In this document: positions 10,497 to 40,685 of the stretch, in pieces
How the letters are laid out: each line of letters starts with the position of its first letter
Position numbering within the stretch: the first letter of the stretch is position 1
Assembly (NCBI GenBank): GCA_964581795.1
Contig: CAZOPW010000001.1
Location: 8,359-72,358, forward strand
DNA: 64,000 nt
Direction: 5' to 3'
Origin: an uncultured Thermoplasmatales archaeon
Lineage (GTDB): Archaea > Thermoplasmatota > E2 > DHVEG-1
The notes under the pieces: generated by a model
The model's input: the letters and a program-made list of their open reading frames with translations, nothing else
The model's database searches: none
Told to the model about the DNA's origin: nothing
Translations under genes and position numbers: made by a program

Positions 10497-10525
10497 TTTA
10501 ATAAATTTATTGGAGATCTATTGGG

Positions 10526-11248: not shown

Positions 11249-11260
11249 GGAGATTAGATT

Positions 11261-12892: not shown

Positions 12893-12921
12893 ATAAAGAA
12901 ATATTACAAATATGCGATGGG

Positions 12922-14598: not shown

Positions 14599-14617
14599 TA
14601 CTTTTGGTTGAGCTAAA

Positions 14618-16372: not shown

Positions 16373-16424
16373 CAATTAAGGAATTTTAATTTATATTTTT
16401 TCAAAAAAATAATGTATCTTATTA

Positions 16425-17081: not shown

Positions 17082-17273
17082 CTCCTAGCAATGATGTGAG
17101 TGGTTCAATTAACTTATTTTAAGAACCCATCCAATGAGAAGGTAATACAGTAAGCAGGTTATAAATCTATGGTTAAAACAAAAAATAGAACAATAAAAAA
17201 AAATGAAAAAAATCAAAAGGAGGGATGTTTTTTCCAATCTCTTAAAAAGAGAGTGGAAGAAATGACATCTCTC

Positions 17274-18018: not shown

Positions 18019-18699
18019 TACATCATCAATATAAGAAGCGGGGGTTGTAAAACCAACAATTCCTGGTGAACCTTCCTCACAGACGACAATACCAGATACA
18101 TCAGTTCTTGGAAGTAATCCACCAAATACTTCGTCTGTATTTATTCCTAAAATCACGTGATCTCCAAAATTAATAATTGGATTGTCTCTTGTGCATGAAT
18201 CATCAGCATCATTTAAAACAATTACACTGAATGAATTTGCACTACCATATGTGCCACTGCCAAATACATCTCCGTTTACATTCGAAGAGTTAGTGTATGT
18301 ATCATCTGATCTCTCGTATGCTAATATATATTTCTCTGATGAATCTGATATTTCAATTATTGTTTCATGTAAATCAATATCTGGAGATCCTGCTTTTGAA
18401 GTTATCTCTATAGCCATTTTATCAATTGAACCAGAAGTATTATGACCTTCAATAGCTTCAACTTTCAATCCACTTGCTACTTCTGCGATAGTCTCCTGAC
18501 CAGTTTTTAACGCCTGCATTTCCAACCGCGTACTTGTTTGGATAAGTACAGATGCGGCAATACCTGCCACAAGAACCATGGCAATAAAAATAATCATTGC
18601 ACCTATCCCAATTGCTGCGGTATCTATCTTTAAATTCTTTCCTAATTTTCTACATCCCATCATCGGAACATCCCTCCTAAAAGTTACGTCTTGTAACAA
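18004..18699 (-). CDS. flaB: Archaellin (FlaB family), 231 aa
   Basis: AAIGIGAMIIFIAMVLVAGIAASVLI N-terminus; close paralog of 20663..21319. Confidence 0.9.
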   Translation of the reverse strand: MLQDVTFRRDVPMMGCRKLGKNLKIDTAAIGIGAMIIFIAMVLVAGIAASVLIQTSTRLEMQALKTGQETIAEVASGLKVEAIEGHNTSGSIDKMAIEITSKAGSPDIDLHETIIEISDSSEKYILAYERSDDTYTNSSNVNGDVFGSGTYGSANSFSVIVLNDADDSCTRDNPIINFGDHVILGINTDEVFGGLLPRTDVSGIVVCEEGSPGIVGFTTPASYIDDVMELQ

Positions 18700-18775
18700 T
18701 TAGGTTGTTTCTATCAACAATAAAACAAACGGTCTTATTATACCTTTTTTTTAGATAGCAATACAAGTGTTAAGG

Positions 18776-18799
18776 CAAATGCATATGCATATGAATATG
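18776..18799. promoter_or_regulatory. Tandem hexamer array (CAAATG CATATG CATATG AATATG) abutting TATA box of the 18699 archaellin promoter
   Basis: Same 6-bp periodic CANNTG-type repeat family. TATA-like GGTATAATAAG immediately downstream (gene strand). AGGAGGG SD before the ATG. Confidence 0.5.
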
Positions 18800-18858
18800 T
18801 TAAAAATCAAGAAATGAATTTTGTCTTGTTATAAAAAGGGTAAATATAGAGTCAATTG

Positions 18859-19843
18859 TGTAGTACGAATATTATTTCGTTTTTTCTTTTTCATATTTTC
18901 AACTCCATAAAATATCCTAAAAGACAACTTGGATCTAATTTTCTCATCAATGCCTCTGCAGGGTTCTCTCCGATCTCTAACCAGAGAGATCCATGTAACC
19001 GATGGTTATACCATTGAAGGAATTCTTCAATGGTGTCAAAACGCCATCGGTGCTTATCATATTCAAACCAGAATCGTTCCACTTTCCCATTGGTTTGAGG
19101 ATTATTCCTGCGAGAGGGAACAAAGTTGATATCATTTTGTTCCAGGAATTCCTGAAATTGTGATTTGCTCTTCGGATGATTTGAGTAAAACTGGGTACCT
19201 CGATCCGTGTTCACATCCTTGATGAATGCATGAAACAGATGACTGTGATCAATCACCTTTTGAAAAGTATCAATACTATGCCTTGCAGTTGCTTCAGGAT
19301 ACTCTGCTCCATGAAAGATGTATCGTGATGCATCATCCATCCAGACAATGGCATGTGGATGATCCACTGAGGTACGATGCCAGTCACCATGGATCAATGA
19401 AAAACTATGATCACGTTCATACCGGCGACGTTTCCGTTTCTTCTGTTTATTCGGATTTGGAATCGTTCTTTTCTTCTTCAGGAAATACTTATGGATCTTA
19501 TGATGTGGAATATGATGCCCTCTTCGTTTCAATTCATGAAAAAGAAGACGAGCTCCGAACCGTGTTTCCTACCAACTTGATCAATGATCTCCTTTTCCGT
19601 TGGAGTAAGTGGTTTTCCTCTTGGTCGTCTCCTCGGGTTCAAACAGGGAGGTTTTCCTGTTTTGCTTATATTCCTTTACTAATTGCTGAATCCTCCGGAT
19701 GCTTACTTCATAATGTCGAGCTAATCGTTCTGTGGTCCAATCTTTATCTTCCACTGCATGTTTGCAGATGTTCCTTATTTTCTTGTCTGTAAGCTTTGTC
19801 ACATCAGCATGTAATCTAAAGCGAAATAATTTTCATACTCTAC
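18859..19843 (-). mobile_element. IS481-like insertion sequence (~985 bp) inserted between the duplicated archaellin units
   Basis: rve/DDE-type transposase ORFs. Imperfect terminal inverted repeats: TGTAGTACGAATATTATTTCG at 18859..18879 versus the reverse complement of GCGAAATAATTTTCATACTCTACA at 19821..19843. Confidence 0.6.
18891..19802 (-). pseudogene. IS481/IS3-like DDE (rve) transposase with N-terminal HTH, interrupted by two in-frame stops
   Basis: HTH segment (TTERLARHYEVSIRRIQQLVKEY). rve motifs TDRGTQF and NPQTNGKVERF. The two ORF pieces are in the same frame, separated by TGA (19581..19583) and TAG (19569..19571). Confidence 0.6.
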
Positions 19844-19932
19844 AAAATATAGAATCAATAAAAAAAGATTTAAAGAAATAAAAAAGTGAAGGGTTCCAAA
19901 AGGATTGGTTTCGGAGTGCCCTTTTTTCAATT

Positions 19933-20677
19933 TATTATTGTAGTTTATAGATTTGATCAACGTATGTCATTGGTGTAGTAAACGAAATCACACCAGGTGA
20001 CCCAATCTCAGGAATCACACGACCAAACACATCTGTTCGTGGTGGAAGTTGTGCATCAAACAAATATGAAGTATTTGTACAAATATACAAAATCGCTTTA
20101 TCCCCACGATTCAACACGGGATTACTCGCAGTAATCGAACTATCTTCATCCTGCAACACACCAATCGCAAACGTTTCAGCACCAGTCGTATTCCAATGAT
20201 CTTCACCAATATCAAACATATCACCAGTCACATCACCAACAAAGGAAATATTGCCATCACCAGTATCTGTCGCATTAGTATAGTTATAACGTACCAATGA
20301 TTTTGTAGCACCGTTACTAATCAAGATATAAGTATTATTCAGATCGATATCATCCGAACCTGGTCGAACCTTCACCACAACAGCAAGCCGAGACAAATTC
20401 TCAAGCTCAGTACTATTGGATTCATTTCGAACCCATCCAGAAACCTCAAAAACAGAAATACCACTACTCACCTCTTTCCGAGTTTTCTGGCCAGTACTCA
20501 ACGCCTGAATCTGCACGGTATTGCTTGTAGAAACCAAAACCGATGCAGCAATACCTGCAACCAAAACCATTGCAATAAACACAATCATTGCACCAATACC
20601 AATAGCAGCTTCATGATCTCGAATAAAATTCTTAACAAACATTCTCATTTCTATTCACCTCCTTATTGCAACTCCAT
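19933..20677. repeat. 745-bp perfect direct repeat, copy 2
   Basis: Identical to 17274..18018; offset 2659 bp. Confidence 0.85.
19935..20648 (-). CDS. flaB: Archaellin (FlaB family), 237 aa, copy 2 of the identical pair
   Basis: Protein identical to the 17276..17989 ORF. Confidence 0.9.
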   Translation of the reverse strand: MRMFVKNFIRDHEAAIGIGAMIVFIAMVLVAGIAASVLVSTSNTVQIQALSTGQKTRKEVSSGISVFEVSGWVRNESNSTELENLSRLAVVVKVRPGSDDIDLNNTYILISNGATKSLVRYNYTNATDTGDGNISFVGDVTGDMFDIGEDHWNTTGAETFAIGVLQDEDSSITASNPVLNRGDKAILYICTNTSYLFDAQLPPRTDVFGRVIPEIGSPGVISFTTPMTYVDQIYKLQ

Positions 20678-21319
20678 CCAAGCATCAATGTATGATGCAG
20701 GAGTAGTAAAACCGACAATTCCTGCTGCACCTTCTTCACATATAACTAATCCAGATACATCAGTTCTTGGTAATAAACCACTGTTTACTGTAAAGACTGA
20801 ACTTGTATCAATGCCTAAAATAACGTGGTCTCCATCATTTATTACAGGTGTTGTACTTGTGCATGATTCATCAGCATCTTGCAAAACTGTAATTCCAAAC
20901 GCAGTTGAGGATCCCCAAGCTCCATTAGTAGATAGGTCTCCATCAATCGATGTTGAGTTTTTATAATCAGATCCATAACCGAGTACATATTTGTTTGTTG
21001 AATCGGATATTTCAATTATTGCCTGTTCTAAATCTATATCTGGAGCGCCTGCTTTTGGTCTAATTTCAATTGCCATTTTGGTAATTTTACCTGAAGCATT
21101 GTATCCTTCAACACCTTCAACAGTAATACCTGAGGATACTTCAGCGATTGTTTCTTGACCCGTTTTTAATGCTTGCATCTCTAAACGTGTACTTGTTTGC
21201 ACCAGCACCGATGCAGCAATTCCAGCAACAAGAACCATGGCGATAAAAATTATCATGGCTCCGATACCAATTGCTGCCATATTTTTTCTATTTGTAAGGT
21301 ATTTAGTCTTTCGTCCCAT
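20663..21319 (-). CDS. flaB: Archaellin (FlaB family), 218 aa, first gene of the array
   Basis: AAIGIGAMIIFIAMVLVAGIAASVLV N-terminus. Strong AGGAGGGGTAAT SD 12 nt upstream. TATA and hexamer array further upstream. Confidence 0.9.
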   Translation of the reverse strand: MGRKTKYLTNRKNMAAIGIGAMIIFIAMVLVAGIAASVLVQTSTRLEMQALKTGQETIAEVSSGITVEGVEGYNASGKITKMAIEIRPKAGAPDIDLEQAIIEISDSTNKYVLGYGSDYKNSTSIDGDLSTNGAWGSSTAFGITVLQDADESCTSTTPVINDGDHVILGIDTSSVFTVNSGLLPRTDVSGLVICEEGAAGIVGFTTPASYIDAWMELQ

Positions 21320-25635: not shown

Positions 25636-26481
25636 CTAGGGTTTTTGAAATACTCGTTCCCTAGAATTGTACGGTTGAAATTTCATTCTTGCCTCGCCGA
25701 CAAGCGTTTCGGTTTTCCCCATCACAAAGAAGCCTCCAGAGTTAAGTGCATTATAAAAATCCATATACAATATTTCTTGTAGAGACCGACTGAAATAAAT
25801 GACAACGTTTCTACAAAAGATAATATCGAAATTTTGTTTTTTCGGACCAGAAATTAGATCATGATATTGAAAAGAAACCAAATCTTTGACAACTGGTTTT
25901 ATTTGATAGTTATCTTGATTTATATCGAAAAAATTTTCTGGATTCTTTAAAAAAGAAAGTTGTTTTGACACATCAGTCTGACTAATTCCTTTTCGTGAAA
26001 AATAAGCTCCAGTTTTTGCTCGCTGCAGACAAGCCTGATCAATATCAGTAGCAACAATACTCACTTTTGACTTTGCTTTTCGTTCACCTAACAATTCAAT
26101 AAAAAGCATCGCAATACTGTATGCTTCCTTCCCATCTGATGAACCTGCACTCCATACTCGAACACGGTTTTTATGTTCAGAAATAGAGGGAATTATATCC
26201 TGCTGGATAAACTGGTAAACGCTTTGATCTCGAAAAAATTCAGTGACATTTATTGTTAAATCATTAAGTAACCGTTCTTGTTCCTTTGTATTCGTTTTTA
26301 ATAATTTCCAATACTCATGATAACTTTCTAAATTATAAGCTCTTAATCTTGCATTAAACCTTCTCCCTAAATAGGTATTCTTATATTGATCAGTATTAAA
26401 TCCAAGTAGGCTTTTTACGCCTTTTTTGAGTTCCTCAAAATCGGGAGGATACGTTCTTGTTTGTACCACGTTCTTATTCAC
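25636..26481 (-). CDS. cheR: Chemotaxis protein methyltransferase CheR
   Basis: SAM-MTase motif VWSAGSSDGKEAYSIAMLF; last gene of the che operon. Confidence 0.85.
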   Translation of the reverse strand: MNKNVVQTRTYPPDFEELKKGVKSLLGFNTDQYKNTYLGRRFNARLRAYNLESYHEYWKLLKTNTKEQERLLNDLTINVTEFFRDQSVYQFIQQDIIPSISEHKNRVRVWSAGSSDGKEAYSIAMLFIELLGERKAKSKVSIVATDIDQACLQRAKTGAYFSRKGISQTDVSKQLSFLKNPENFFDINQDNYQIKPVVKDLVSFQYHDLISGPKKQNFDIIFCRNVVIYFSRSLQEILYMDFYNALNSGGFFVMGKTETLVGEARMKFQPYNSRERVFQKP

Positions 26482-26499: not shown

Positions 26500-27015
26500 T
26501 TAAATGACTTTAATATTCGGTCCTTCTCCACCTTTTTTCACCATGCGAATGTGTAATTCTTCATTATTTGGATAAAATGTTATTGTTCGACCTCGATCTC
26601 CGCCTACATCCTTTCCAACAATTCGGATATGATGTTGTTTAAGAATCTGTTGAACCGCTTCAGCATTTCTTTTGCCAATCTGCAAGGAGTCATCTTTGAA
26701 AGTAAATAGACTCGCTCCACCAGCAATTTTTGCTTTACAATTGTGTGTATTACAACCTTTCTTTTTCATTTCATCAAGTAATGCTGGAATAGCTGTATCG
26801 GCATATTTGCCGATCCTGTCTTTTTTTGTTCCCATAGTGGGAAGCATTATGTGCGAAAGACCTGCAATTTTTTGTTTGGAATCATAAATGACAATACCTA
26901 TACAACTACCTAACCCTACTGTTGATAAGGGAGAACCATTATCAGATACCGCATAATCACCAATCCCAATGATAACATTTTCCTGCATACTTACTATCCT
27001 TCCAAGATGGTACAA
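26500..27015 (-). CDS. cheD: Chemoreceptor glutamine deamidase CheD
   Basis: GLGSCIGIVIYD motif typical of CheD. Confidence 0.85.
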   Translation of the reverse strand: MYHLGRIVSMQENVIIGIGDYAVSDNGSPLSTVGLGSCIGIVIYDSKQKIAGLSHIMLPTMGTKKDRIGKYADTAIPALLDEMKKKGCNTHNCKAKIAGGASLFTFKDDSLQIGKRNAEAVQQILKQHHIRIVGKDVGGDRGRTITFYPNNEELHIRMVKKGGEGPNIKVI

Positions 27016-27027
27016 TTTTCTTAATGT

Positions 27028-27705
27028 CTATTCAGATAATGAATTGACATATGCATCTACTTCCACATCATTTGTTTTTCCAAATGATGCAATCAATCGA
27101 TCATACAAAATATCCAATGATTGTGGTGACGGAAGTAAAATGAAATATGAAGTAAACTGATTTTTTTTCCCTCGAAACTGTGTATCAAAAATTAATGCGT
27201 GAGATGTTTCTTTTCCAATGATATTAGTGATTTGATCAATAAAGACATCAGGGACTTCTTCAGAATAATGAGGTGGTGACAGCATAATAGAAGTATCAAG
27301 GAAAGTACTCAGGGCATTTGTATAAGCTGAAACAACGACATTTCCCACTTCTGTTATCGCAGATTCGCTCATTTCATTTAATTCAGTTGAAGTACCTATC
27401 GGTTGAAACATAAGCAAATCTGAAAGAATTAACGCACTTTTATAAGGAAATAAAAACAAAATACTTCCAAGAAATTTATCTGTTAATTCCAAGTAAACAC
27501 CGACAAGTTTATTATCATCACCTGAGATTTTTCTAATGCTTTGTTTTAAATCTGGAATTTTTTGTACAAAAATTTGAGGGACATTAATTTCAACTTCTTG
27601 ATTAATCATTTGGGAGACCGCAGTTGCAGCATGAGAGCAGCCAATATTACCTGTTTCTTGTAATGCATCAAGTTGTGTTTCATTTAGTAAGTGGAGTTGT
27701 TTCAT
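27028..27705 (-). CDS. cheC: CheC-family CheY-P phosphatase (paralog 3)
   Basis: NIGCSHAATAVSQMI motif; ~210-225 aa; tandem with two further CheC genes. Confidence 0.8.
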   Translation of the reverse strand: MKQLHLLNETQLDALQETGNIGCSHAATAVSQMINQEVEINVPQIFVQKIPDLKQSIRKISGDDNKLVGVYLELTDKFLGSILFLFPYKSALILSDLLMFQPIGTSTELNEMSESAITEVGNVVVSAYTNALSTFLDTSIMLSPPHYSEEVPDVFIDQITNIIGKETSHALIFDTQFRGKKNQFTSYFILLPSPQSLDILYDRLIASFGKTNDVEVDAYVNSLSE

Positions 27706-27752
27706 TTATCTTACCATCCTATCCTAATTTAACTTATTACCATATATTATGT

Positions 27753-28367
27753 TCAATCCATGCCGAGCTTATGTAGCATAAGATCAATCGTTTTCGGTTC
27801 TGGAATAAGAAACATATTCACATCAAAAGTATTCTTACCTTCTTCAGATACCGCAGTTTCAAATAGCAAAACTGTATCAGCAACCGATCCAACTTTAATT
27901 AATGCATAATCAAGAATTGCTGCAGGCATATCAAAAGCAATTACAGGAGGACCTGGTACCATTGATACATTAATTAGTTCAGTTATACTATCAAAAAATG
28001 AACTCATCATCACATTACTGACCTCCATTAATGCTGACTCTTCCATCTCTGAAAAACTATCTCGCATTCCTTCAGGTTGATTAAGTAACAGATTAGAAAG
28101 ATAAAACGCACTCTTTTTAGAAAGAAGTACCATAACATACAACGGTGTTTCCTCTGCCATCTGTAAAAAAACACCAATAACGGGGTCTGTCTGAGGAACA
28201 GTTTCAACGCTTTTTTCAAGTGGAACAACATCAATACGTGGAATTCCCACTTGTATCGGCTTGCTTACCATTTTGGATAGAGCTGTCGCTGCGTGAGAAG
28301 CACCTATATTAGCTACTTCTTGCAAAGCATCCCGTTGCATTTCATTTAGAGTCAATGTTTCAATCAT
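27753..28367 (-). CDS. cheC: CheC-family phosphatase (paralog 2)
   Basis: ANIGASHAATALSKMV motif. Confidence 0.8.
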   Translation of the reverse strand: MIETLTLNEMQRDALQEVANIGASHAATALSKMVSKPIQVGIPRIDVVPLEKSVETVPQTDPVIGVFLQMAEETPLYVMVLLSKKSAFYLSNLLLNQPEGMRDSFSEMEESALMEVSNVMMSSFFDSITELINVSMVPGPPVIAFDMPAAILDYALIKVGSVADTVLLFETAVSEEGKNTFDVNMFLIPEPKTIDLMLHKLGMD

Positions 28368-28386
28368 CTTTTTCCCTTCAAATAAA

Positions 28387-29001
28387 TTATTTTAAACCCA
28401 TACGTTTAAGTAGTGTATTTACTGAATCTGGCTCAGGTAACAAAAACATGTGAATTTCGAAATTATGATCTTTTTCCTCTTTTAAATCAACATTAAACAA
28501 AAACACATCATTTGATACCTCTCCGATTTGAATAAGGACATAATCAAGAACAGCTTCAGGAATATCATACGCTAAATGAGGCGGACCAGGTACAACACTC
28601 ATGCCTAATAATGCAGATATACTATCAAAAAATGAACAGATCATCACATTTGCTACTTCAGATAATGCAGACATATCCATTTCAGAGAGCACCCGTTCAC
28701 CAGAATGTATCTGTTCTCCTAAAAGTAAATCAGCAAGTGCAAATGCGCTCTTTCTTGGAATTAACATCATCACATAGGATGGTATTTCATCAGATATTTT
28801 TAAAAAAATACCTACAACGATTTGTTCATTTTGAATATACGTTCCTGCTTCAGCTAACGGAATAACCTCTACATGAGGGATTCCCATTTTTACTTCACGA
28901 TTAATCATTTGAGACAATGCAGTAGACGCATGACCTGCGCCAATGTTTGCCAGCTCTTGCAATCCATCCTTTTGTGTTGTATCTAATGTAATTTTTTTCA
29001 T
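28387..29001 (-). CDS. cheC: CheC-family phosphatase (paralog 1)
   Basis: ANIGAGHASTALSQMI motif. Confidence 0.8.
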   Translation of the reverse strand: MKKITLDTTQKDGLQELANIGAGHASTALSQMINREVKMGIPHVEVIPLAEAGTYIQNEQIVVGIFLKISDEIPSYVMMLIPRKSAFALADLLLGEQIHSGERVLSEMDMSALSEVANVMICSFFDSISALLGMSVVPGPPHLAYDIPEAVLDYVLIQIGEVSNDVFLFNVDLKEEKDHNFEIHMFLLPEPDSVNTLLKRMGLK

Positions 29002-29026: not shown

Positions 29027-31096
29027 TTATTTTACAAGTGTATTCACATCAAGGACTAATATGACCCTTCCATCACCAGTTATAGTTACTCCCGCGATAC
29101 CTTTCGTTCTTTTCATACTGCCGCCAACATTCTTAATAGTTATTTCTTGTTCACCAATTAATTGATCAACGAGTAATCCAAATTTTTTATCTTCTCGTTG
29201 GATTATCACACCATAAACACTTTTTGTCAAATCTTTGCCATCTTTTTCATTCTTAACAAGATCTTTTAATCCTAAAACAGGTAACACTTCATTTCGAATC
29301 ACCGTAGTTTTTTTGCCATCTATGTAATTGATATCTTCTGGTTGAAGTTTGACCGTTTCAATAATATTACTAATAGGAATTGCATATGTCTCCTGATCGA
29401 CACCAATAAATAACGCTTTGAAAATTGCCATCGTTAACGGTAATTTTAAAGAAAATGTACTTCCTTTATCCGTAGAAGACTGAACATCCACGACACCATT
29501 GAGCTTTTCAATAGTGGATTTGACTACATCCATTCCTACCCCTCGACCAGAAATATTAGTAATTTTTTCTGCACTACTTAATCCAGGTAAGAAAATAAGT
29601 TGTAATGCCTGCTGATCGGTCATTGATTGGACCTCTTGTTGCATTTTTAAACCTTTTTTCACAGCAGTTTCTTTAATTTTATCTGGGTTAATGCCTTTTC
29701 CATCATCTGTTACCTTAATGAGAACGTGATTTCGTTTACGTTCTGCAATAAGTTGAACAGTTCCAGCTGATGGTTTACCCTTTTTTTCTCTTTCTTCAGG
29801 TGTTTCAATTCCATGGTCGACTGCATTTCTAAGTAAATGAACTAGAGGATCTCCAATTTCATCTAAAACGGTACGATCAAGTTCTATTCCTTCACCTTCC
29901 ATCTGGAAATCAATCTGTTTTTCATTTTGCTTTGACAGGTCACGAACCATTCTAGGAAATCTATTGAATATATGTTTCATCGGTATCATTCGAATGTTCA
30001 TAATTTTGTCCTGTAGTTGATTGGTTAATCGATCAAAAGTTGAAATGGTTTCTGAAAGATCCTCTAAATTATGATCTGCAGCAATTTGAGTTAATCGACC
30101 TTTACTAATAACAAGCTCTCCTATGAGATTCATGAATTCATCAAGTTGATCCATTCCGACACGAATGCTTTGTGACTGCCGTGCTAATTCTTTTTTTGAT
30201 TTGATCGGTTTTTTGTCACTAGCCTTTTTTGTTTTTCGTTGGTTGTCTGGTTTCTCACTTGGACTATGGTCAGTCACTTCACCTTTTTTTTGAATTTGTT
30301 GATATTCTTTAGGAATTGATATTTTATCATTTTCAATTGAGAGAGGAATAACTTGTTTTTCTTCTAATTCTGAAACGGAATCAACTATTTCATGAACTGA
30401 TTCTTCATTTGCACTCGTGGTATAAAAGAGATCAAATGATTCATCAAAATCTCCCTCCTCTATCATTTTTCTTTTAGGATTAGTGTATACTATTTCACCA
30501 TTATCGCTTAATTTTTTTAAAAGAAGATATGCCCTTATTGATTTCATCCTGCATTGTTCATTAACTGATATATGCAATGCGTACACGGATTGTTCTTGTT
30601 CCAATTTTTGTAGCAAAGTTTCATTTATATCTTTTGGGAAATCTAATGAAACTGTTGTTGAATCTGATGGTTTGTTCTTTGGTTTTTTTTGTCCCGATGA
30701 AGAATTTAAGTAGTTTTCTAATTGCTCAATTAACCCATTAATATTAAAATCAGTTACATCATTTACCGCAATATCCTCCACCATTTCCTCTATTCCATCA
30801 AAACAATTAAAAATTAAATCAACAACATTGCTATCAACTGTAATTTCATGTTGACGAATAAGATCAAGAGTATCTTCAGTTTTGTGAGATAAATGTTGAA
30901 TGGAATCGTAATTTAACGTAGCAGCCATTCCTTTGATTGTATGTGCCGCACGAAAAATTTTGTTTAATGCTTCTTCATCCTCTGGATTTTGTTCAAAATC
31001 TAATAATGATTGATTTAATGTTGTAAGATGTTCCCTTGCTTCCTCAATGAACATCTCTTTGTATTCGCTGTTCTCATCATTCATTATGCAATTCAC
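29027..31096 (-). CDS. cheA: Chemotaxis histidine kinase CheA
   Basis: Hpt motif AAHTIKGMAATL. HATPase region (GRGVGMDVV). C-terminal CheW-like domain. Confidence 0.9.
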   Translation of the reverse strand: MNCIMNDENSEYKEMFIEEAREHLTTLNQSLLDFEQNPEDEEALNKIFRAAHTIKGMAATLNYDSIQHLSHKTEDTLDLIRQHEITVDSNVVDLIFNCFDGIEEMVEDIAVNDVTDFNINGLIEQLENYLNSSSGQKKPKNKPSDSTTVSLDFPKDINETLLQKLEQEQSVYALHISVNEQCRMKSIRAYLLLKKLSDNGEIVYTNPKRKMIEEGDFDESFDLFYTTSANEESVHEIVDSVSELEEKQVIPLSIENDKISIPKEYQQIQKKGEVTDHSPSEKPDNQRKTKKASDKKPIKSKKELARQSQSIRVGMDQLDEFMNLIGELVISKGRLTQIAADHNLEDLSETISTFDRLTNQLQDKIMNIRMIPMKHIFNRFPRMVRDLSKQNEKQIDFQMEGEGIELDRTVLDEIGDPLVHLLRNAVDHGIETPEEREKKGKPSAGTVQLIAERKRNHVLIKVTDDGKGINPDKIKETAVKKGLKMQQEVQSMTDQQALQLIFLPGLSSAEKITNISGRGVGMDVVKSTIEKLNGVVDVQSSTDKGSTFSLKLPLTMAIFKALFIGVDQETYAIPISNIIETVKLQPEDINYIDGKKTTVIRNEVLPVLGLKDLVKNEKDGKDLTKSVYGVIIQREDKKFGLLVDQLIGEQEITIKNVGGSMKRTKGIAGVTITGDGRVILVLDVNTLVK

Positions 31097-31097: not shown

Positions 31098-32576
31098 TTA
31101 TTTTTTCTGCTTAAGCCATAATGTGCTTTGGGGAGCTATTTGATGAAGTGGAAGCACTTTATCCACTACCCCTAATTCAATCGCAGCTTTAGGCATACCA
31201 AAGATTATTGAAGTTTTTTCATCCTGAGCTATAGTTCTTCCCCCCTTTGCCTTAATTGTTCCCATTGCTTGTGCACCATCTCTACCCATGCCAGTTAATA
31301 ACACTGCAACAAGATGTTGTTGAAAGACTTCTGCAGCTGTAGAAAACGTTACATCCACAGCAGGTCTCACACCATGAATTTTAGGTTTTTTATTCAATGA
31401 AACATATCGTTTTAGTTTTCCATTATCCATTTCTTCCTCAACAGTCATATGATAATCGCCAGGCGCAATAAGAGCAACACCATTTTTGATTTCATCACCC
31501 TCGCTAGCTTCTTTTACATTAATCTCAGATAAGGTGTTTAATCGTTCTGCAAGAGATTTTGTAAATACCGGGGGCATGTGTTGAACAATCAGAATACCAG
31601 CAGTTATATCTCTAGGAATTTGAGGGATAAGTTTAGTAAGAGTTTGAGGCCCACCAGTAGAGGAACCAATGATTAATACTTTTTTTACAGTAGTCAATGG
31701 TTGAAAATGAGTTTTTCTTACTTCTGCAAATTTTGTCTTCATTTGATGAGCAGTTCTAACTTTTTCAAGTAATAACTCACTCATTGTCTGAATACTCGTA
31801 TGTGGTGCCGGTTTTGGAATAAAATCTATTGCCCCAGCATCTAATGCGTCTTTAATAGCAGCCATATTATGCTCAGCTTCGCCACTTATTACTATGACTG
31901 GGAGTGTTCGCTCTTGCAATAATTTTTGTGTAGCTATTACACCATCAACATTTGGCATATTAATATCCATTAACACAACATCAGGATGAATTTCTTGTAA
32001 TTTTTGTAATGCTTCACCACCATCAAGAGCAGTTCCAATAATATTCATATCATGTTGTGAACTAATGATTTCTGAAATCTTTTTCAAAAAAAAGGGCGAA
32101 TCGTCGACCAAAAAAACGTTAATTAATGATTTTGTTGCACTTGCCATCTTCGTTCTTGAATATGTTTCAAAGTTAACATTTGCATGAGCAGATGTTTTTA
32201 CTTTTTCAATTAATTCAGAGCCTATTTCCTTCATATTTAACGATATTGAACCAGATGGTTTACAAATAAAATCAATTGCTCCAGCGTGTAACGATTCAAT
32301 TGTAATCCTTGCTCCTTGAGATGTCAATGCACTTACCATAACTATTGGTTTTGGATTATGTTTCATGATGTGCCTAACAGCATCAATACCATTCATTTCT
32401 GGCATTTCAACATCCATCGTAATGACATCTGGATTGAATTTTTCTGTTTTTTTGATAGCATCAACGCCGTTTTTTGCTGTGCCAATCACTGATATTTGAG
32501 GATCTTGTTTAAGAATATCACTAATCACTTTTCGCATAAATGCAGAATCATCGACAACAAGAACGTTTAGGCTCAC
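31098..32576 (-). CDS. cheB: Chemotaxis methylesterase CheB with two tandem N-terminal receiver domains (REC-REC-CheB_methylest, 492 aa)
   Basis: REC1 VLVVDDSAFMRK...ITMDVEMP...FICKP. REC2 VFLVDDSPFFLKK...VLMDINMP...FIPKP. Methylesterase domain with GSSTGGPQ and HMPPVFT. Confidence 0.85.
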   Translation of the reverse strand: MSLNVLVVDDSAFMRKVISDILKQDPQISVIGTAKNGVDAIKKTEKFNPDVITMDVEMPEMNGIDAVRHIMKHNPKPIVMVSALTSQGARITIESLHAGAIDFICKPSGSISLNMKEIGSELIEKVKTSAHANVNFETYSRTKMASATKSLINVFLVDDSPFFLKKISEIISSQHDMNIIGTALDGGEALQKLQEIHPDVVLMDINMPNVDGVIATQKLLQERTLPVIVISGEAEHNMAAIKDALDAGAIDFIPKPAPHTSIQTMSELLLEKVRTAHQMKTKFAEVRKTHFQPLTTVKKVLIIGSSTGGPQTLTKLIPQIPRDITAGILIVQHMPPVFTKSLAERLNTLSEINVKEASEGDEIKNGVALIAPGDYHMTVEEEMDNGKLKRYVSLNKKPKIHGVRPAVDVTFSTAAEVFQQHLVAVLLTGMGRDGAQAMGTIKAKGGRTIAQDEKTSIIFGMPKAAIELGVVDKVLPLHQIAPQSTLWLKQKK

Positions 32577-32603: not shown

Positions 32604-33014
32604 TTATCCCATTATTTTTCCAACTTCTTCCAAAACCTGGGGAGCCTGAAATGGTTTTACAATATATCCCTTGGCACCTGCTTCAATTGCTTCCTTAACT
32701 TTTGTCTCTTGTCCTACAGCAGTCACCATGATTATGTTTGCATTCCCATCTTCTGCAACTATATTTTTTACTGCTTCTATTCCTTCCATATTCGGCATTA
32801 CTATATCCATAGTGACAAGGTCTGGTTTATGTTTCTTGTATGCCTCAATTGCTTCCAGTCCATCGGATGCTTCAGCAACAATTTCAAATCCCTTAGGTTT
32901 AAGGATATTTGCTAGCATCATCCGCATGAATTTTGTATCATCTACTAACATCACTTTTTTTCCCATACGACCCTCCTCACCGCAAAAGGTGGTGTCGTTT
33001 ATCAATTTTTCCAT
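32604..33014 (-). CDS. cheY: Chemotaxis response regulator CheY
   Basis: VMLVDDTKFMR...VTMDIVMP...YIVKP. Real start possibly the internal Met (MGKKVML, ~32966). Confidence 0.9.
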   Translation of the reverse strand: MEKLINDTTFCGEEGRMGKKVMLVDDTKFMRMMLANILKPKGFEIVAEASDGLEAIEAYKKHKPDLVTMDIVMPNMEGIEAVKNIVAEDGNANIIMVTAVGQETKVKEAIEAGAKGYIVKPFQAPQVLEEVGKIMG

Positions 33015-33054: not shown

Positions 33055-34005
33055 TTACTTAAGATTCTTTTTCATTTGTTCAACAATGTGTTTTGTTCCC
33101 TTTTCTGTTAGTTCATATTCCTGATCACCAGAAACACGAAGTACCTCTTTTGATAAGAGATCATCAACAATACTCTGTAATTCCTCCTCAGAAATCCCTA
33201 GCATCTCTGTTGCCATAGATGCATCAATATCACTAGTATACATCATTTGAACAAGCATGAACTGTTGTTCATTTAATTCAATCGTTTCTGATTCCTTTGC
33301 TTTACTTTCAGAGATGAGTTGAACGTATGAACCCATAAAGGAAATTAATGGACGTTTGCCAGTAATCAAAGTTGAAATAATCGTTCCTTCTTTTTGATAT
33401 TTAAGTGTTAAAGAGGAATCTTGTTTATCTTGTAAATTAATTTCAAAATCATCCAAATTTAGTAAATCGATTGTTTCTTTTTGTTTCTTGCCTAACCATT
33501 CTGCAGCAAGTATAACATTATTTTTTTTAATGAACACATTTCCTTCAACAGGTTTTTTATCTAAAAGGATTTTTCCACCTTTACTAAATGGACTTACGAA
33601 CTCTATTGTTTTTCCATTTGTTAAAAGAATGCATAAAAATTTTTTAATTTTCTTTGCATTCTCATGCGAGGTTGATAATAAACAGGCTTTTTCCTCATTA
33701 TCATCTGAGATATAATGGACTGGTATAATTGTCGTTGAACCTAGAGCTTTTCGCCAGAGTTCAACTTTCCTATCCACATCAGTAATTTTATCATATGGCA
33801 AAATCTTAATATTTTCTTCATCTGGTTTATTATCTTTCTCTGGAGCCAATAGTATTTTTTTCGTTGTTAATGTTAAAAAACCTGGAGTAAGCCTTTTCTC
33901 ATTATTTTTATCCTTTAAATTTGAGAGTTTGTAAATGAATTTTAAATATGAATTTTGGATCAATGCTTTTTCTTCAGCCATCCTACCGTAACCTTTCTTT
34001 TCCAA
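33055..34005 (-). CDS. Putative CheF-like archaeal chemotaxis adaptor (first gene of che operon)
   Basis: Position (cheF-cheY-cheB-cheA-cheC-cheD-cheR is the canonical archaeal order). ~316 aa. No bacterial-type che domain. C-terminal wHTH-like segment. Confidence 0.45.
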   Translation of the reverse strand: MEKKGYGRMAEEKALIQNSYLKFIYKLSNLKDKNNEKRLTPGFLTLTTKKILLAPEKDNKPDEENIKILPYDKITDVDRKVELWRKALGSTTIIPVHYISDDNEEKACLLSTSHENAKKIKKFLCILLTNGKTIEFVSPFSKGGKILLDKKPVEGNVFIKKNNVILAAEWLGKKQKETIDLLNLDDFEINLQDKQDSSLTLKYQKEGTIISTLITGKRPLISFMGSYVQLISESKAKESETIELNEQQFMLVQMMYTSDIDASMATEMLGISEEELQSIVDDLLSKEVLRVSGDQEYELTEKGTKHIVEQMKKNLK

Positions 34006-34252: not shown

Positions 34253-34744
34253 TTATTTATTTTCTCTTTGTTGCTGAATAACCCATAATCCAATTGGCCT
34301 AACATCAGGAGTTGATGCCATCTTTGATTTTGTCCAATCCATTAGCTCTTCTTTTGAAAGATGCTGACAGCAGTGTTCGCAAGCAAAAAATTCATCAGCA
34401 ACAACTAAACCAGACAAATTTTTCCCTAACACTATGTCTTTTTCACAAACATCACAGATTACTGTAGATTCATCTGTGAGTCCAATAACCTCAGAATTCA
34501 TAATCGAAACGGGTTCTGAATTTTCAATATGTGAAATTGTATCTTTTATATTTTGATTATCATTAATTTTTTTGGATTTATTATTATCTTGCTTTTTTGA
34601 GATTTTTTTAGTTTTTTTAGATCCAATCTCAGTACTTTCTTTCGTACTATCATTCATCGAATCATCAGAGGTAGTTTTATTAGAAGTAATTTTCTTAAGT
34701 TTTTGAATATGAGATATAATCTCATCAATATCTTTATTTTCCAT
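34253..34744 (-). CDS. Lysine-rich protein with C-terminal zinc-ribbon (CxxC...CxxC)
   Basis: CDVCEKD...CEHCCQH cysteine pairs; basic low-complexity N-terminus. Confidence 0.4.
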   Translation of the reverse strand: MENKDIDEIISHIQKLKKITSNKTTSDDSMNDSTKESTEIGSKKTKKISKKQDNNKSKKINDNQNIKDTISHIENSEPVSIMNSEVIGLTDESTVICDVCEKDIVLGKNLSGLVVADEFFACEHCCQHLSKEELMDWTKSKMASTPDVRPIGLWVIQQQRENK

Positions 34745-35151: not shown

Positions 35152-37641
35152 GTGAATTGGAAGATGGGATGGAAAGGAAAAAAATTCCAAGACATGAGTA
35201 TAAAATGGAAGCTGTTGATTATATGCGTACTTTTGGTAAGCGTACCCGTTGCTGCTGCTGGAACTATTAGTTACCAAACATCAGAACGAGAAACATTCCA
35301 ACAAATTGAGGATCAACTTACCGAACAAGCACTTGCATGGAAAACAATTGTCCAAGGGCAATCAGATGTTTTAGATAGGGAAGATGAACTCATAAGAGAT
35401 GAATGTATCGCAATTTCTCGTGATGTAAAAAAGATGATTGAACTCATTGTTCAGCAACATGGAACTTCACCAAGTGACTCTGTAGTGAACAATCTCTTTG
35501 ATAAAATAGCTGAAATTACTGTAGGGAAAACCGGTTATGTCTATCTAATTAGTTGTGTAGACGATAATCCACTTGAGACAATACTCAATGATGGAAATGA
35601 CTATAACAAAGGATATTACGTTGTATCTAAAGGACGCGCTCGAGATGGAGATAATATTTGGAGCGCGCAAGATAACGATGGTGTATATTTTATTCAAAAT
35701 ATGGTCAATCAAGCTTTAACTCTTACGGGTGATGAAGCTTTTACTATTGATTATCCCTGGCAGAATGAAGGTGAAACAGAAGCAAGGATGAAACTAGGTG
35801 GAATAACCTATTACGAACCATGGAATATTCTTATTGGTGCTAGTTCATATTATGATGATTTTAAAAGTTCTGACATTCAAGAAGATCTCAAAGATAATAT
35901 CGCAAGTCAAGTAATCGGAAAAACCGGATATATTTTTGTTCTCGACGGTAGTGGTGATGAGCAAGGTAATTATATTGTTTCAAAAAGTCGTGAAAGAGAT
36001 GGGGAAAATATTTGGGACGCAACAGATGCAGATGGCGAGTACTTTATTCAACAAATTGTTACAAATGCAAAGAAAGTGAGTGAAGGAGATGCTCATATAC
36101 AATACTATCCTTGGCAAAACGAGGGTGAATCCTCCTCGAGATTAAAACTAGCCGCATGTACCTATGTACCAGAATGGGATTGGGTAATTGGTGTGAGTGC
36201 ATATCAAGAAGATTTTTTGGATGGTTTAAAAACGATTCAAATGACAACAATAAGCATTGTAGTGATCTCAATAATTCTAGGTAGTATAGTTGCCTACTTC
36301 TTTGCGATGGCGTTAACTAAACCAATAAATAAAGTTGTTGGAGTCGTTAAATCAAATGATCTCTCCCAAAGATGCAATATTTCCTCCAAAGATGAAATTG
36401 GTACCATAGGTGGTGCCGTAGATGGGATGTTAAATAATCTAGCAGTACCCGTTAAAGAGATGGCAGATAAAGCCAATAAAATAGCAAAAGGAGATCTTAC
36501 TGTTGATTTAAATGTTAAAGCCGAAGGGGATGTTGGAAGACTCGTTGATGGTTTTAAGCAAATGATAACTAATTTACAGTCTGTCATTGGAGAAATAAAA
36601 AATACATCAACAACTACTGCATCTACTGCTGAAGAACTTAGTAGCAGTGCTGAAGAAGTAAATGCTAGTATGGAAGAAGTTTCAAGTACAATTCAACAAG
36701 TAGCTGAAGGGAGTCAAAACACGGCAAAAGATAGTGAAAACATGATTAATCAAGCAAAGCAAGCAAGTGAAAACAGTGAACAAGGTCAGGAAGCCGCCAA
36801 AGAAGTTTCTCAGAAAATGCAACTTATTAAAACAACAACGCAAGAAGGGGCAGAAAAAATCGGTTCACTTGGGGAGAAAAGCAAGGAAATCGGCAATATC
36901 GTTGATACGATTAATCAAATCAGTGAACAAACGAATTTACTTGCATTAAACGCTGCAATAGAAGCAGCTCGTGCTGGAGAAGCAGGAAGAGGTTTCGCTG
37001 TCGTTGCGGATGAAGTTCGAAAACTCGCAGAGGAAAGCGGTCAAGCAACTCAAAAAATTAGTTCTTTAATCAAAGGCATACAAACCGAGATTGACAGTGC
37101 TGTCTCTAGTATGAACGAGAATTCAAAGCAAGTCGAAGAAGGTGGTCGAGACGTTGAAAAAGCAATGCAGGCATTCCAAACATTGCCTGAAGTCATTAAA
37201 GCAGTTAATCAAAGTGCTGAAGAAGTGGGAAGTGTAGCCCAAGAGAATGCTAGTGGAGCAGAAGAGGTCAGTGCTAGTATTGAAGAAGTGACAAGCAGTA
37301 TGCAACAGGTAACAAGTTCAAGTCAACAAATGGCAGATATAGCAACACGACTTCAGGAAATTGTTAGTAGCTTCAAAATCGATGAATCAGCTTTAGGATC
37401 TAACCAGTTTGATCATTCGGAAGCAAACAATGATAAGTCAGCTGATTATGGTTCAAATAATCAATTTGAACCTTCATCTTTTTCCTCTCAAGAACCTGCC
37501 ACAACACAAAATAAACAGACGGATGTTAAAGAATTATCAATAGGCAATAAAGCAAAAAAATTCTTTTCCAAAACAAGAAGTAGAAACAATCAATCTCAAC
37601 AAAAAGAAATCTCAGAGGAAGATACAACTAATATCCAATAA
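35152..37641 (+). CDS. Methyl-accepting chemotaxis protein with large repeated extracellular sensor domain, HAMP and MCP signalling domain
   Basis: N-terminal TM. Internally repeated periplasmic module ([21 protein letters not shown] / [21 protein letters not shown]; YPWQNEG twice). Second TM. Signalling-domain core [34 protein letters not shown]. Confidence 0.9.
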
Positions 37642-37656: not shown

Positions 37657-38301
37657 ATGCCAGTAGGAACGGACCAAGATGGTTTTGGTAAGCATGGCGC
37701 TGATGACCGGCAACTTGTTATATTCAAAATCGCAGGTGAAGAATTTGGTGTTGACATCAATGAAGTCAAAGAAATCATTCGTTGGGAAGATGTAACTCGT
37801 ATTCCAAATACAGAAAGTTACATTAAAGGCGTTATCAACCTGCGTGGAAGTATTGTTGTAGTTAATGATCTTGCAATGAAACTCGGACTTCCATCAAAGG
37901 AAGTAGATGATGATACAAGAATCCTTGTTGTCGAAGTCGATGGAAATACCGTTGGGATGGTTGTTGATAGTGCTACTGAAGTTTTACGTCTCGAAGGGGA
38001 AAAAGTGCAAGATGCGCCTGATATGATAACAAGTGGTATCGATCAGAATTATATTGATGGTGTTGGCATATTAAATGAAAAACGGTTGCTTACATTATTA
38101 GATCTTACTAAAGTAATGGCTTCAAAAGATTATGAAAAAATATTACAAGTACAGCAGCAGGCAAATAACCAATTTGAACAGAAAAAACAAGGAAAAAATG
38201 CATCTGATTCTCCTAGAAATAAAACTCAAAATACTGATGAAAATGATGAAAATATGAAAGAATCTTCATCAAAAAAAAAGAAAGTTAAGAACAAAAAATG
38301 A
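37657..38301 (+). CDS. cheW: Chemotaxis coupling protein CheW with lysine-rich C-terminal tail
   Basis: CheW-like domain (FGVDINEVKEIIRWEDVTRIPNTESYIKGVINLRGSIVVV). Confidence 0.85.
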   Translation: MPVGTDQDGFGKHGADDRQLVIFKIAGEEFGVDINEVKEIIRWEDVTRIPNTESYIKGVINLRGSIVVVNDLAMKLGLPSKEVDDDTRILVVEVDGNTVGMVVDSATEVLRLEGEKVQDAPDMITSGIDQNYIDGVGILNEKRLLTLLDLTKVMASKDYEKILQVQQQANNQFEQKKQGKNASDSPRNKTQNTDENDENMKESSSKKKKVKNKK

Positions 38302-38835: not shown

Positions 38836-39690
38836 TTAATCATTATATGGAATATCTAATGAGAATATAGTTTGTCCTTCAGTACTTTCCACTGATAAAT
38901 TTGCATTATATTTTTCACTTATATCATGAATTATCTGTAATCCTTTTCCATGATGAGCCCCTTTAGTTGAAACTGTTTTCTTTGATTGAATTTTTTTAAG
39001 AATTGAGGAGGATATCTTTTTACCCGTGTTTACAATTTCAATATGAACAAACTCTTTCTTATAAATAAATAAAATGGAAATAATCCCATTTTTACTATCT
39101 AGTTCCTGAATAGCTTCAATTGCATTGGACAGTAAATTATAAAGTAATAATTGAATTTCATAACCACAAACTAATAATTTGCGGGAAGATCCCTTTTTAT
39201 CAAAATGAATGCGTATTGATTCACGTTGATTTTTTTCACCAATGAGGTCCCCATACAATGTTTGTGGATAGCGTTTCAATAATTCTGTAATTGTTGAATC
39301 CAAAACATCCTCTAAATAGAACTTTTCTTCGTATTGTGGGTCCGAAATGATATTTTCAATTCGATCAATATTTTCATAAATCCCGTTCAACATTTCTTGT
39401 AATTCTGCTTTTTTTTCTTCTTCTATTGGCATGTAATCTATATTTTTTTCGATTAGATTGACATCAACTTTAATATGTTTAATATTGTGTTTTGGGTCTT
39501 CTGATTGATCAAAACTTTCAAACTCCTGAATTGTTTTTTCAACAACATCAGCTAAATCTTTTTGTTGCTGATACATAAAATATGTCCACATTAAATTTAG
39601 GCCGCCAATAGAACTATGACCATGTGCACGAATATACCATTGGATTTTTTCCTGAATATTTCCGGTTAGAAGAGGATTATTCATTGTCAC
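38836..39690 (-). CDS. GHKL/HATPase_c-domain protein (soluble histidine-kinase-like), translationally coupled to the CheV-like gene
   Basis: C-terminal ATPase motifs (LLYNLLSNAIEA; GKGLQIIHDI). No TM segments. 4-bp overlap with upstream gene (39687..39690). Confidence 0.6.
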   Translation of the reverse strand: MTMNNPLLTGNIQEKIQWYIRAHGHSSIGGLNLMWTYFMYQQQKDLADVVEKTIQEFESFDQSEDPKHNIKHIKVDVNLIEKNIDYMPIEEEKKAELQEMLNGIYENIDRIENIISDPQYEEKFYLEDVLDSTITELLKRYPQTLYGDLIGEKNQRESIRIHFDKKGSSRKLLVCGYEIQLLLYNLLSNAIEAIQELDSKNGIISILFIYKKEFVHIEIVNTGKKISSSILKKIQSKKTVSTKGAHHGKGLQIIHDISEKYNANLSVESTEGQTIFSLDIPYND

Positions 39691-40685
39691 TCCACTTTTT
39701 TATGTTTTTCCAATACGTTTTCAACTATATTGAGTAGATTTCCAATTTCAGGTTTGCTAATCTGTGCATCTGCACCTAGTAAATCTCCTTTTCTACGTAT
39801 TTCTTCATAAATTAATGAAGAAAAAAGAATAACTGGTAACTGGTTCATAGTTGCATCTTCTTTTATCTTTCGAAGAAGTGAATGCCCATCCATTTGCGGC
39901 ATCTCGATATCGGTAACAACCAGTTGAATATATTCTGTTATTGGACAATTTGAATTAGAAGATTTTCGTTTCCAGTTCGCAATACATTCCCAAGCAAGTT
40001 TTCCGTTATCTACAGAGACCACATCAAATCCGCCATCTTCTAAAATCCCTTTAAGCAAATCTCTAACGATGCTCGAATCCTCTGCGAGTAATACTTTTGG
40101 TGGAGGATTACCTCCATCCAACTGATCAATTATGTGTTTATCAGATTTAATGCTTAAGCTAACTTCCGGATTGATATCAGCAACGATCTTTTCAAAATCG
40201 ACCATCAACATTAGTTTCTTCTCATCTTTCCCAAGGGCTACAATTCCAGTAATACAATTTTTTCTAATATCATGTTGAACTTGGGCAGGGGGAAGAACTT
40301 TTTCCCAACTCATTCGATGAATAGTTTCTATTCGATGAACCAAAAACCCAAAATTATCCTGATTGAATTCCGCAACGATAACATATGTGTTATTATACTC
40401 CTCTACTTCACTCTCGTTCAACCATCCACCTAAATCGATAAGAGGAATTATTTTATCTCGGAGTTTAAAAACCCCTAATACATTCTTATGAGATGTAGGA
40501 ATGCCCATGTATTCTGGAGTTTTAATAATCTCTCTAATTTTAGCAACGTTTATGCCAAAGGATTGATACCGTTCACAATTTTTTAAATAGATACCAAATT
40601 CCGCTATTTCTACTTCATTCGTACCAGTTTCAAGTAATATTTCTTGACGATCAGTTTTATTTTCCATCCCAACCATTTTAATCAT
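39687..40685 (-). CDS. cheV: CheV-like protein (CheW domain + C-terminal receiver domain)
   Basis: N-terminal CheW-like domain (EFGIYLKNCERYQSFGINVAKIREII...KLRDKIIPLIDLGGWL). C-terminal REC (VLLAEDSSIVRD...VVTDIEMPQMDG...QISKP). Confidence 0.7.
   Translation of the reverse strand: MIKMVGMENKTDRQEILLETGTNEVEIAEFGIYLKNCERYQSFGINVAKIREIIKTPEYMGIPTSHKNVLGVFKLRDKIIPLIDLGGWLNESEVEEYNNTYVIVAEFNQDNFGFLVHRIETIHRMSWEKVLPPAQVQHDIRKNCITGIVALGKDEKKLMLMVDFEKIVADINPEVSLSIKSDKHIIDQLDGGNPPPKVLLAEDSSIVRDLLKGILEDGGFDVVSVDNGKLAWECIANWKRKSSNSNCPITEYIQLVVTDIEMPQMDGHSLLRKIKEDATMNQLPVILFSSLIYEEIRRKGDLLGADAQISKPEIGNLLNIVENVLEKHKKVE

Follow-up and report, generated by a model that had tools for sequence, protein, structure and literature searches.

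The DNA analyzed here, referred to as the window, is a stretch of 64,000 nucleotides (nt) from an uncultured Thermoplasmatales archaeon (GTDB lineage Archaea; Thermoplasmatota; E2; DHVEG-1; assembly GCA_964581795.1, contig CAZOPW010000001.1, positions 8,359 to 72,358 of the forward strand), with a GC content of 33.6%. Its minus strand carries a cheB gene whose predicted product, a chemotaxis methylesterase of 492 amino acids, contains two receiver (REC) domains, each followed by a linker, ahead of the catalytic domain. The gene and the parts of its product are as follows.

31098..32576, minus strand: cheB, 492 amino acids, REC1-linker1-REC2-linker2-methylesterase (open reading frame [ORF]; Pfam 2x Response_reg plus CheB_methylest; NCBIfam CheB)
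32223..32570, minus strand: REC1, residues 3 to 118, canonical CheB-type receiver with the quintet D9 D10 D55 S82 K106 (homologue conservation, canonical positions, match to 3t8y)
32412-32414, minus strand: codon of the REC1 phospho-acceptor D55
32127..32222, minus strand: linker 1, residues 119 to 150, a CheB-type helix (ELIEKVKTSAHA) and then a variable K/S/T/P-rich tether (profile match, models)
31773..32126, minus strand: REC2, residues 151 to 268, diverged CheB-type receiver with the quintet D158 D159 D204 S231 K255 (homologue conservation, canonical positions, match to 3t8y)
31965-31967, minus strand: codon of the REC2 phospho-acceptor D204
31683..31772, minus strand: linker 2, residues 269 to 298, a second CheB linker helix (LLLEKVRTAHQ) and a flexible stretch (REC1-REC2 BLASTP, profile match, models)
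31122..31682, minus strand: CheB methylesterase/deamidase catalytic domain, residues 299 to 485, with the triad S306, H333, D433

A single dual-receiver gene

The initial annotation of this gene, made from the sequence by eye, proposed two complete receivers and a methylesterase domain in one 492-amino-acid protein, and database searches bore this out. Pfam returned the combination that it had suggested looking for, with Response_reg in two stretches (E = 3e-48) and CheB_methylest over residues 302 to 482 (E = 1.7e-65), and the NCBIfam CheB model PRK00742 matched the protein with 543 bits, its best stretch being residues 152 to 483. The motifs named in the annotation (DD, MDVEMP, and FICKP; DDSP, MDINMP, and FIPKP; GSSTGGPQ and HMPPVF) are all present. 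In REC1, D9 and D10 lie in VVDDS, D55 in MDVEMP, and K106 in ICKP, with S82 between the last two; the corresponding REC2 residues are D158 and D159 in LVDDSP, D204 in MDINMP, S231, and K255 in IPKP. The esterase triad consists of S306 (GSSTGG), H333 (VQHMPP), and D433 (GMGRDG) and is invariant across the homologue alignment. The protein thus has the features by which a CheB is recognized, namely, a catalytic domain with a Ser-His-Asp triad, a receiver with CheB linker (here twice), and a che gene context; it departs from the canonical two-domain layout of one REC and about 350 amino acids. That standard size, also given in the annotation, agrees with the canonical CheBs in our homologue list (from Thermococcus, Pyrococcus, Methanocella, Methanocaldococcus, and others), which have 340 to 372 amino acids and cover ∼67% of the query.

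Odd architectures in metagenome-assembled genomes (MAGs) may be artifacts, and an in-frame ATG at residue 144 would suit a stand-alone receiver gene joined to a normal cheB by a sequencing, assembly, or frameshift error. Positions 31098 to 32576, however, form a single uninterrupted reading frame with no stop or frameshift separating REC1 from REC2, so that the initial annotation's concern over a hidden cheY-like gene plus normal cheB does not apply. The frame opens with GTG, with a Shine-Dalgarno-like GAGGG motif ∼7 nt upstream and the cheY stop codon 27 nt away. The same protein, 100% identical and with matching neighbors, was predicted from at least four assemblies that are independent of each other, and because it recurs in this way, the dual-REC CheB is not a frameshift artifact. 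About 50 diverged homologous clusters (52 to 85% identity) moreover share its length and architecture, and Met144 is not conserved; the chance that an artifact accounts for the gene is negligible. A conserved internal start at Met144, yielding a short canonical CheB isoform, was considered and rejected for the same lack of conservation and the lack of a clear ribosome binding site.

Structure models show three folded domains; the cores of both RECs and the esterase are for the most part predicted with a local distance difference test score (pLDDT) of >90. The models place a helix at residues 115 to 130 in linker 1 and a long helix at residues 262 to 286 in linker 2, and low-confidence stretches fall within the linkers, at residues 136 to 147 (pLDDT < 50) and ∼287 to 298. 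Across the dual-REC family, linker 1 varies in length and sequence, its tether of 20 to 35 residues being flexible and poorly conserved. Superposition of the modeled esterase on 3sft and 1chd gave 1.0 Å, and that of a receiver on 3t8y gave 2.0 Å. The predicted template modeling scores (pTM) of the models are 0.64 and 0.45, and Foldseek aligned REC2 plus esterase with 1a2o and 6ymz at a root mean square deviation of ∼18 Å.

Origin and divergence of the two receivers

A homologue search of 5.8 billion protein clusters yielded about 55 clusters of 477 to 532 amino acids with matches along the entire query; a close family (∼52 to 85% identity) accounts for 52 of them. Residue conservation was assessed in an alignment of 55 such long homologues. 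In REC1, the acidic pair was found in 53 of 55 sequences at both D9 and D10, the other 2 being N-terminally truncated; the phospho-acceptor D55 was present in 53 (both exceptions are Poribacteria proteins), and S82 and K106 were present in all 55. REC2 retains D158 in 55, D159 in 52, D204 in 54, and both S231 and K255 in 55 sequences. Consistent with the initial annotation, which had described both acidic pockets, phospho-acceptor aspartates, and lysines as intact, the quintets are therefore kept in 52 to 55 of the 55 homologues, and the possibility it had raised of a degenerate or non-REC first domain can be dismissed, REC1 being a near-canonical CheB receiver. The aromatic switch residue is likewise retained in both receivers (F/Y103 in REC1; F/Y252 in REC2, 49/49). 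Mean column conservation is 0.75 for REC1, 0.77 for the esterase, and 0.63 for REC2, which makes REC2 the least conserved of the folded domains. Because its catalytic residues are nevertheless kept, the REC2 active site is under purifying selection, and both receivers are apparently phosphorylatable.

The two modules are related to each other beyond the receiver fold. REC1 and REC2 align in BLASTP with 34% identity over 147 amino acids, and the alignment extends into both linker helices (ELIEKVKTSAHA versus LLLEKVRTAHQ). A canonical profile derived from residues 1 to 160 (REC plus linker) of 61 canonical CheBs matches both modules over ∼145 positions, through residue 149 for REC1 and to residue 292 for REC2. 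Since these matches include the linker, the repeated unit is the whole CheB regulatory module of REC and linker helix. In a PDB sequence search, the top four matches for either module were the CheB receivers 3t8y, 7esg, 1a2o, and 6ymz, ahead of every CheY; for REC1, the CheB receivers scored 147.6, 114.5, 110.2, and 109.4 bits, compared to ≤92.6 bits for CheY proteins. By these sequence comparisons, both N-terminal modules are CheB-type and not CheY-type.

The arrangement of archaeal che operons makes a different origin conceivable, in which a CheY was joined to a normal CheB: cheY lies directly upstream of cheB, so that a read-through fusion is plausible, and REC1 is 38.5% identical to the neighboring CheY (REC2, 33%). 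In Halobacterium loci, tblastn even merges adjacent cheY and cheB genes into a pseudo-full-length match. A separate cheY, however, persists upstream both here and in relatives, and REC1 carries the CheB linker helix, matches the canonical REC-plus-linker profile end to end with 224 bits, finds its best PDB matches among CheB receivers, and nests among canonical CheB receivers in the tree described below, with a distance of 0.70 to the CheY of the window. The profile match, PDB ranking, tree placement, and linker helix together rule out a CheY-CheB fusion for practical purposes, and we regard it as highly improbable. We infer instead that an intragenic tandem duplication in an ancestor of the clade produced the dual-REC layout, and the architecture and its origin by internal duplication of the CheB module can be stated with high confidence.

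The two copies have diverged asymmetrically. REC1 outscored REC2 against the canonical CheB profile in 55 of 55 proteins, with means of 205 and 132 bits, respectively, and the PDB scores of REC1 and REC2 were 147.6 and 88.5 bits for 3t8y and 110 and 73 bits for 1a2o. At 51 positions that are ≥80% conserved in the canonical CheB REC and linker, REC1 retains 50 residues and REC2 retains 36. In a neighbor-joining tree, 52 family REC1 modules nest among canonical archaeal CheB receivers, while the REC2 modules, also 52, branch off together as a deep clade of their own. Mean distances were 0.41 between REC1 and canonical receivers, 0.61 between REC2 and canonical receivers, 0.31 within REC1, and 0.46 within REC2, and REC2 has evolved ∼1.5 times faster than REC1. 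The initial annotation had implicitly taken REC1 as the additional domain; on the sequence evidence, it is the distal REC1 that can hardly be told apart from canonical archaeal CheB receivers, and the esterase-proximal REC2 that is the diverged copy.

The losses of REC2 gather mainly in four places, namely, the alpha1 N terminus, D+2, T+1/T+2, and alpha4 with the loop after the conserved Lys (n = 49 for each count). Positions D+2, T+1, and T+2 reportedly tune the rates of receiver phosphorylation and dephosphorylation, according to work from the Bourret laboratory. At D+2, REC1 has Glu in 47 proteins, whereas REC2 has Asp in 21, Glu in 15, and Asn in 12; at T+1 and T+2, REC1 has Ala (48) and Leu (46), and REC2 has Gly (34) or Ser (11) followed by a charged residue. 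The alpha4 T..GA..T motif and the PSGSIS loop after the conserved Lys are present in REC1 and lost in REC2. The N terminus of alpha1 reads S-A-[L/F]-M-R-K in REC1 and, in REC2, S-x-F-F-x-K, with Pro in 28 of 49 proteins and variable residues otherwise at the second position; the residue at this first alpha1 specificity position is Ala in 48 of the 49 REC1 modules. In the CheA3-P1/CheY6 complex, alpha1 residues 11 to 17 contribute ∼67% of the interface, phosphotransfer specificity is switched by the two residues that correspond to DD+2 and DD+3, and noncognate CheYs carry Pro at the first of the two (PMC2817712).

Distribution and gene neighborhood

The named members of the family are proteins from 'Candidatus Thermoplasmatota archaeon' MAGs whose annotation reads only CheB. 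The GTDB species representatives yielded a single close match (73% identity), locus L005 from an 'uncultured Thermoplasmatales archaeon', which was also the only truly dual-REC case among 80 loci. Apparent full-length matches in the genomes of cultured Halobacterium, Natronorubrum, and Paenibacillus were rejected as adjacent cheY and cheB genes or as single-REC CheBs with a linker insert of ∼130 amino acids. The Paenibacillus species (L006, L008, L010 to L013, L015, L016, L018, and L038) have single-REC CheBs of ∼450 to 510 amino acids, and the ∼130-amino-acid insert between REC/linker and methylesterase represents a different route of lengthening.

The initial annotation had also called for a survey of CheB architectures in related archaea. 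With the family profile, 15,618 matches at E ≤ 1e-30 were obtained from 1.84 billion cluster representatives, and the architecture was inspected in the best 150 of them. Eleven of these 150 were long proteins, the family representative and 10 others, and Pfam confirmed two Response_reg domains plus CheB_methylest in P0056, P0058, P0121, P0122, P0141, P0144, P0155, P0171, P0182, and P0245. The survey thus placed REC-REC-CheB proteins in the Thermoplasmatota-type family and at least 10 other lineages, its reach being the best 150 matches. In six of these proteins (P0056, P0122, P0141, P0144, P0155, and P0182), each REC has the other as its nearest relative, and the same almost holds for P0121; the pattern occurs in at least seven lineages besides the Thermoplasmatota one. 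Because this is usually the case, the REC-plus-linker module has apparently been duplicated independently many times, and most of the at least 10 other lineages probably acquired the architecture through such duplications. The dual-REC CheB is therefore rare but recurrent.

The fate of the receivers differs among these proteins. The Poribacteria proteins P0057 and P0058 (the latter encoded at 8001-9569 of L086) are REC-REC-CheBs with Asn at the REC1 phospho-acceptor position, which would make REC1 a pseudo-receiver. The P0058 gene follows cheR in a che cluster adjoining T2SSE and secretin (pilus-like) genes. In P0144, the conserved Lys is lost in both RECs (including a Lys-to-Leu change).

Within the window, cheB lies in a che operon on the minus strand with the order cheF-cheY-cheB-cheA-cheC x3-cheD-cheR, and a chemoreceptor gene and cheW follow on the plus strand.

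32604..33014, minus strand: cheY, 136 amino acids, separate gene immediately upstream of cheB (Pfam Response_reg, 9.1e-32; same place in relatives)
33055..34005, minus strand: cheF, archaeal CheY-archaellum adaptor (Pfam CheF-arch)
29027..31096, minus strand: cheA, Hpt-P2-dimerization-HATPase-CheW, immediately downstream of cheB (Pfam)
28387-29001, 27753-28367, and 27028-27705, minus strand: three cheC genes (Pfam)
26500-27015, minus strand: cheD (Pfam)
25636-26481, minus strand: cheR (Pfam)
35152-37641, plus strand: dCache-HAMP-MCP chemoreceptor (Pfam)
37657-38301, plus strand: cheW (Pfam)

The CheA of the operon, which has a P2 domain for response regulator docking, is the presumed phosphodonor for CheB, and the neighboring dCache-HAMP-MCP receptor is its presumed substrate. 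Only one methylesterase domain is encoded in the 64-kb window. Archaellum genes occupy 7825-21319 and encode ArlC/D/E, F, G, and H, a pair of ArlI-like ATPases, ArlJ, and several archaellins. Together with the che genes they make up a complete motility island of the standard archaeal type, and the gene analyzed here is the resident cheB of this island in a member of the Thermoplasmatota. The operon order is identical in L001 and in a 58%-identity relative (P0023, on the 122-kb contig of L085).

Several neighbors deserve mention in their own right. The three CheC paralogues lie in tandem between cheA and cheD (27028-29001, minus strand), and all three also occur in the 58%-identity relative of L085. 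A CheW-REC fusion (CheV-like, 332 amino acids, 39687-40685, minus strand), whose REC catalytic residues look intact, overlaps by 4 nt with the gene of a 284-amino-acid GHKL ATPase (38836-39690, minus strand; Pfam HATPase_c_5) with no recognizable HisKA or Hpt domain; the two may form an extra kinase/adaptor pair beside the archaeal che genes. No homologue of the GHKL ATPase was found in those flanks of relatives that the analysis covered. Between cheF and the divergent chemoreceptor gene, an ORF of 163 amino acids (34253-34744, minus strand), with a counterpart among the predicted genes of L001 and L003, has no Pfam match and a Cys-rich C terminus (CxxC...CxxC).

Archaellum operons normally contain one ArlI/FlaI ATPase; two ArlI/FlaI-like T2SSE ATPases of 543 and 558 amino acids are encoded in tandem here (11261-14598, plus strand), between arlH (10526-11248) and arlJ (14618-16372). 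A run of minus-strand ORFs at 16425-21319 lies beside this operon, and both ORFs that were scanned (16425-17081 and 17276-17989) encode archaellins. Farther away, an AglB/STT3 oligosaccharyltransferase of 1,284 amino acids (53280-57134, minus strand) carries C-terminal CarboxypepD_reg/SdrD_B-like repeats. An Rfam scan of the whole window gave no family at the gathering score, and so no tRNA or rRNA was found.

Possible roles and significance

Canonical CheBs such as those of Salmonella (1A2O), Pectobacterium atrosepticum (6YMZ), Haloarcula marismortui (7ESG), and Thermotoga maritima (3T8Y/3SFT) have a single REC and linker and ∼350 amino acids. The window protein, in contrast, has this module twice in 492 amino acids, with both sites intact and the proximal copy changed at positions of specificity and kinetics. 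In the arrangement that we favor, REC1 would most likely remain CheA facing, docking at P2, taking phosphate from the His of P1, and following canonical CheB kinetics, and REC2, tethered directly to the esterase through linker 2, would most likely gate the active site. REC2 would be phosphorylated with different kinetics or a different partner preference, and full methylesterase activation would need two phosphorylation events, so that adaptation feedback would be steeper, thresholded, or delayed compared to that of a single-REC CheB. Use of both phosphorylation sites is somewhat probable; the specific two-step control logic is tentative and less likely than not. As a whole, the statement of a duplicated CheB module with a CheA-facing REC1, a second, retuned site in REC2, and two-event activation is, in our estimate, evenly balanced between right and wrong.

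Alternative roles differ from this arrangement mainly in what they assign to one receiver. REC1 alone might be phosphorylated, with REC2 acting as a structural adaptor or pseudo-receiver that relays the signal or dimerizes, as in PleD. The loss of canonical alpha1 and alpha4 features from the diverged REC2, the presence of PleD (REC-REC-GGDEF) among the structural matches, and the degeneration of one receiver in other dual-REC lineages (for example, the Poribacteria proteins with Asn in place of the REC1 acceptor, and P0144 with Leu in place of Lys) speak for such a role. Pseudo-receivers normally lose their catalytic residues, however, and those of REC2 are retained in 52 to 55 of 55 proteins (F/Y252 in 49 of 49) despite the mean column conservation of 0.63; because the REC2 quintet is fully conserved, the adaptor idea is weakened, and we consider it doubtful. 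In the converse assignment, which takes up the internal phosphate sink suggested in the initial annotation, REC2 and the esterase would constitute an ordinary CheB and REC1 would be an appended sink or a decoy for CheA docking, competing with CheY for phosphate from CheA and tuning the termination of the signal without controlling the esterase. REC1 does look like a fully competent CheA substrate, it sits on a flexible and poorly conserved tether of 20 to 35 residues, and the NCBIfam CheB model aligns contiguously with residues 152 to 483. The operon nevertheless already contains three CheC-type phosphatases and CheD, along with a separate CheY, so that a sink is not obviously needed, and REC1 and the esterase are the most conserved parts (0.75 and 0.77), with CheB-specific features, including the linker helix, that are unexpected for a mere sink. 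Since the three phosphatases, the separate CheY, and the CheB-specific nature of REC1 conservation weaken this idea, it seems improbable to about the same degree as the adaptor.

The receivers might also integrate two donors, the other suggestion of the initial annotation, with REC1 fed by CheA and REC2 by some other histidine kinase or by a small molecule, so that the adaptation rate takes in a second input. Indirectly, this fits the difference of REC2 from both REC1 and CheY at the alpha1 positions of P1-REC specificity and the variability of its D+2 and T+2 residues; kinases also occur near the che genes, namely, the GHKL ATPase beside CheW-REC (38836-40685) and PAS-HisKA kinases flanking the L085 operon. 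A co-conserved second kinase was sought in the flanks covered for relatives, but none was found, the GHKL protein lacking a homologue there, and we rate a two-donor integrator as quite unlikely. A broader switch with two inputs or two steps, in which REC1 reports CheA and REC2 is charged by another donor (a kinase or acetyl phosphate) or far more slowly, is only slightly less unlikely. If it did exist, receptor demethylation would be AND-gated or ultrasensitive, and the independent duplication of the module in at least eight lineages would reflect selection for this design. We know of no chemotaxis system for which AND-gated or ultrasensitive demethylation feedback has been described.

Among known proteins, the closest parallel in layout outside CheB is the PleD-type REC-REC'-GGDEF architecture, with tandem receivers that arose by duplication ahead of an enzymatic output domain. 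The second receiver of PleD is an adaptor without a phospho-acceptor. Unlike in PleD, both receivers of the window protein keep the full quintet family-wide, so that phospho-acceptor and catalytic residues are present in each, and the protein also differs from PleD in its output domain and pathway. The structural alignment with PleD covers 172 residues at 3.7 Å and was made with the models of pTM 0.64 and 0.45. The other REC-REC-CheBs (P0056, P0057/P0058, P0121, P0122, P0141, P0144, P0155, P0171, P0182, and P0245) share the three-domain layout and arose mostly by internal duplication, but they have separate origins, gene contexts, and fates, and none forms a family as large and diversified as that of the Thermoplasmatota.

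A search of the literature, in a searchable collection that is itself incomplete, found no description of REC-REC-CheB, two receivers, or tandem RECs in CheB; domain architecture databases almost certainly list the combination. The 2018 census of archaeal two-component systems gives only 'CheB, REC-CheB' as archaeal CheB architectures (PMC5847659). The same census provides a precedent in the REC-REC-BcsA regulators of Methanobacteriaceae, a lineage-restricted group with one or two RECs and an enzyme, whose output domain and pathway are unrelated to those of the window CheB (Galperin et al. 2018, PMC5847659). The dual-REC CheB elaborates on a protein that is already thoroughly understood and does not amount to a new kind of system.

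Its interest lies in the place that it occupies. No other CheB was seen in the che operon, which is standard in other respects; the protein is kept across the whole clade, and its architecture has been reinvented in several unrelated lineages. Chemotactic adaptation receives its feedback through the phosphorylation of CheB, a step whose exact role is still debated even in Escherichia coli. A natural CheB with what appear to be two conserved phosphorylation sites would offer a ready comparison for the role of an extra nonlinearity or input in this feedback, in an experimentally tractable variant whose sequences are already public under the plain name CheB. The family extends the catalogue of archaeal response regulator architectures and illustrates how response regulators may evolve, by intragenic duplication of a receiver followed by asymmetric divergence of the copies.

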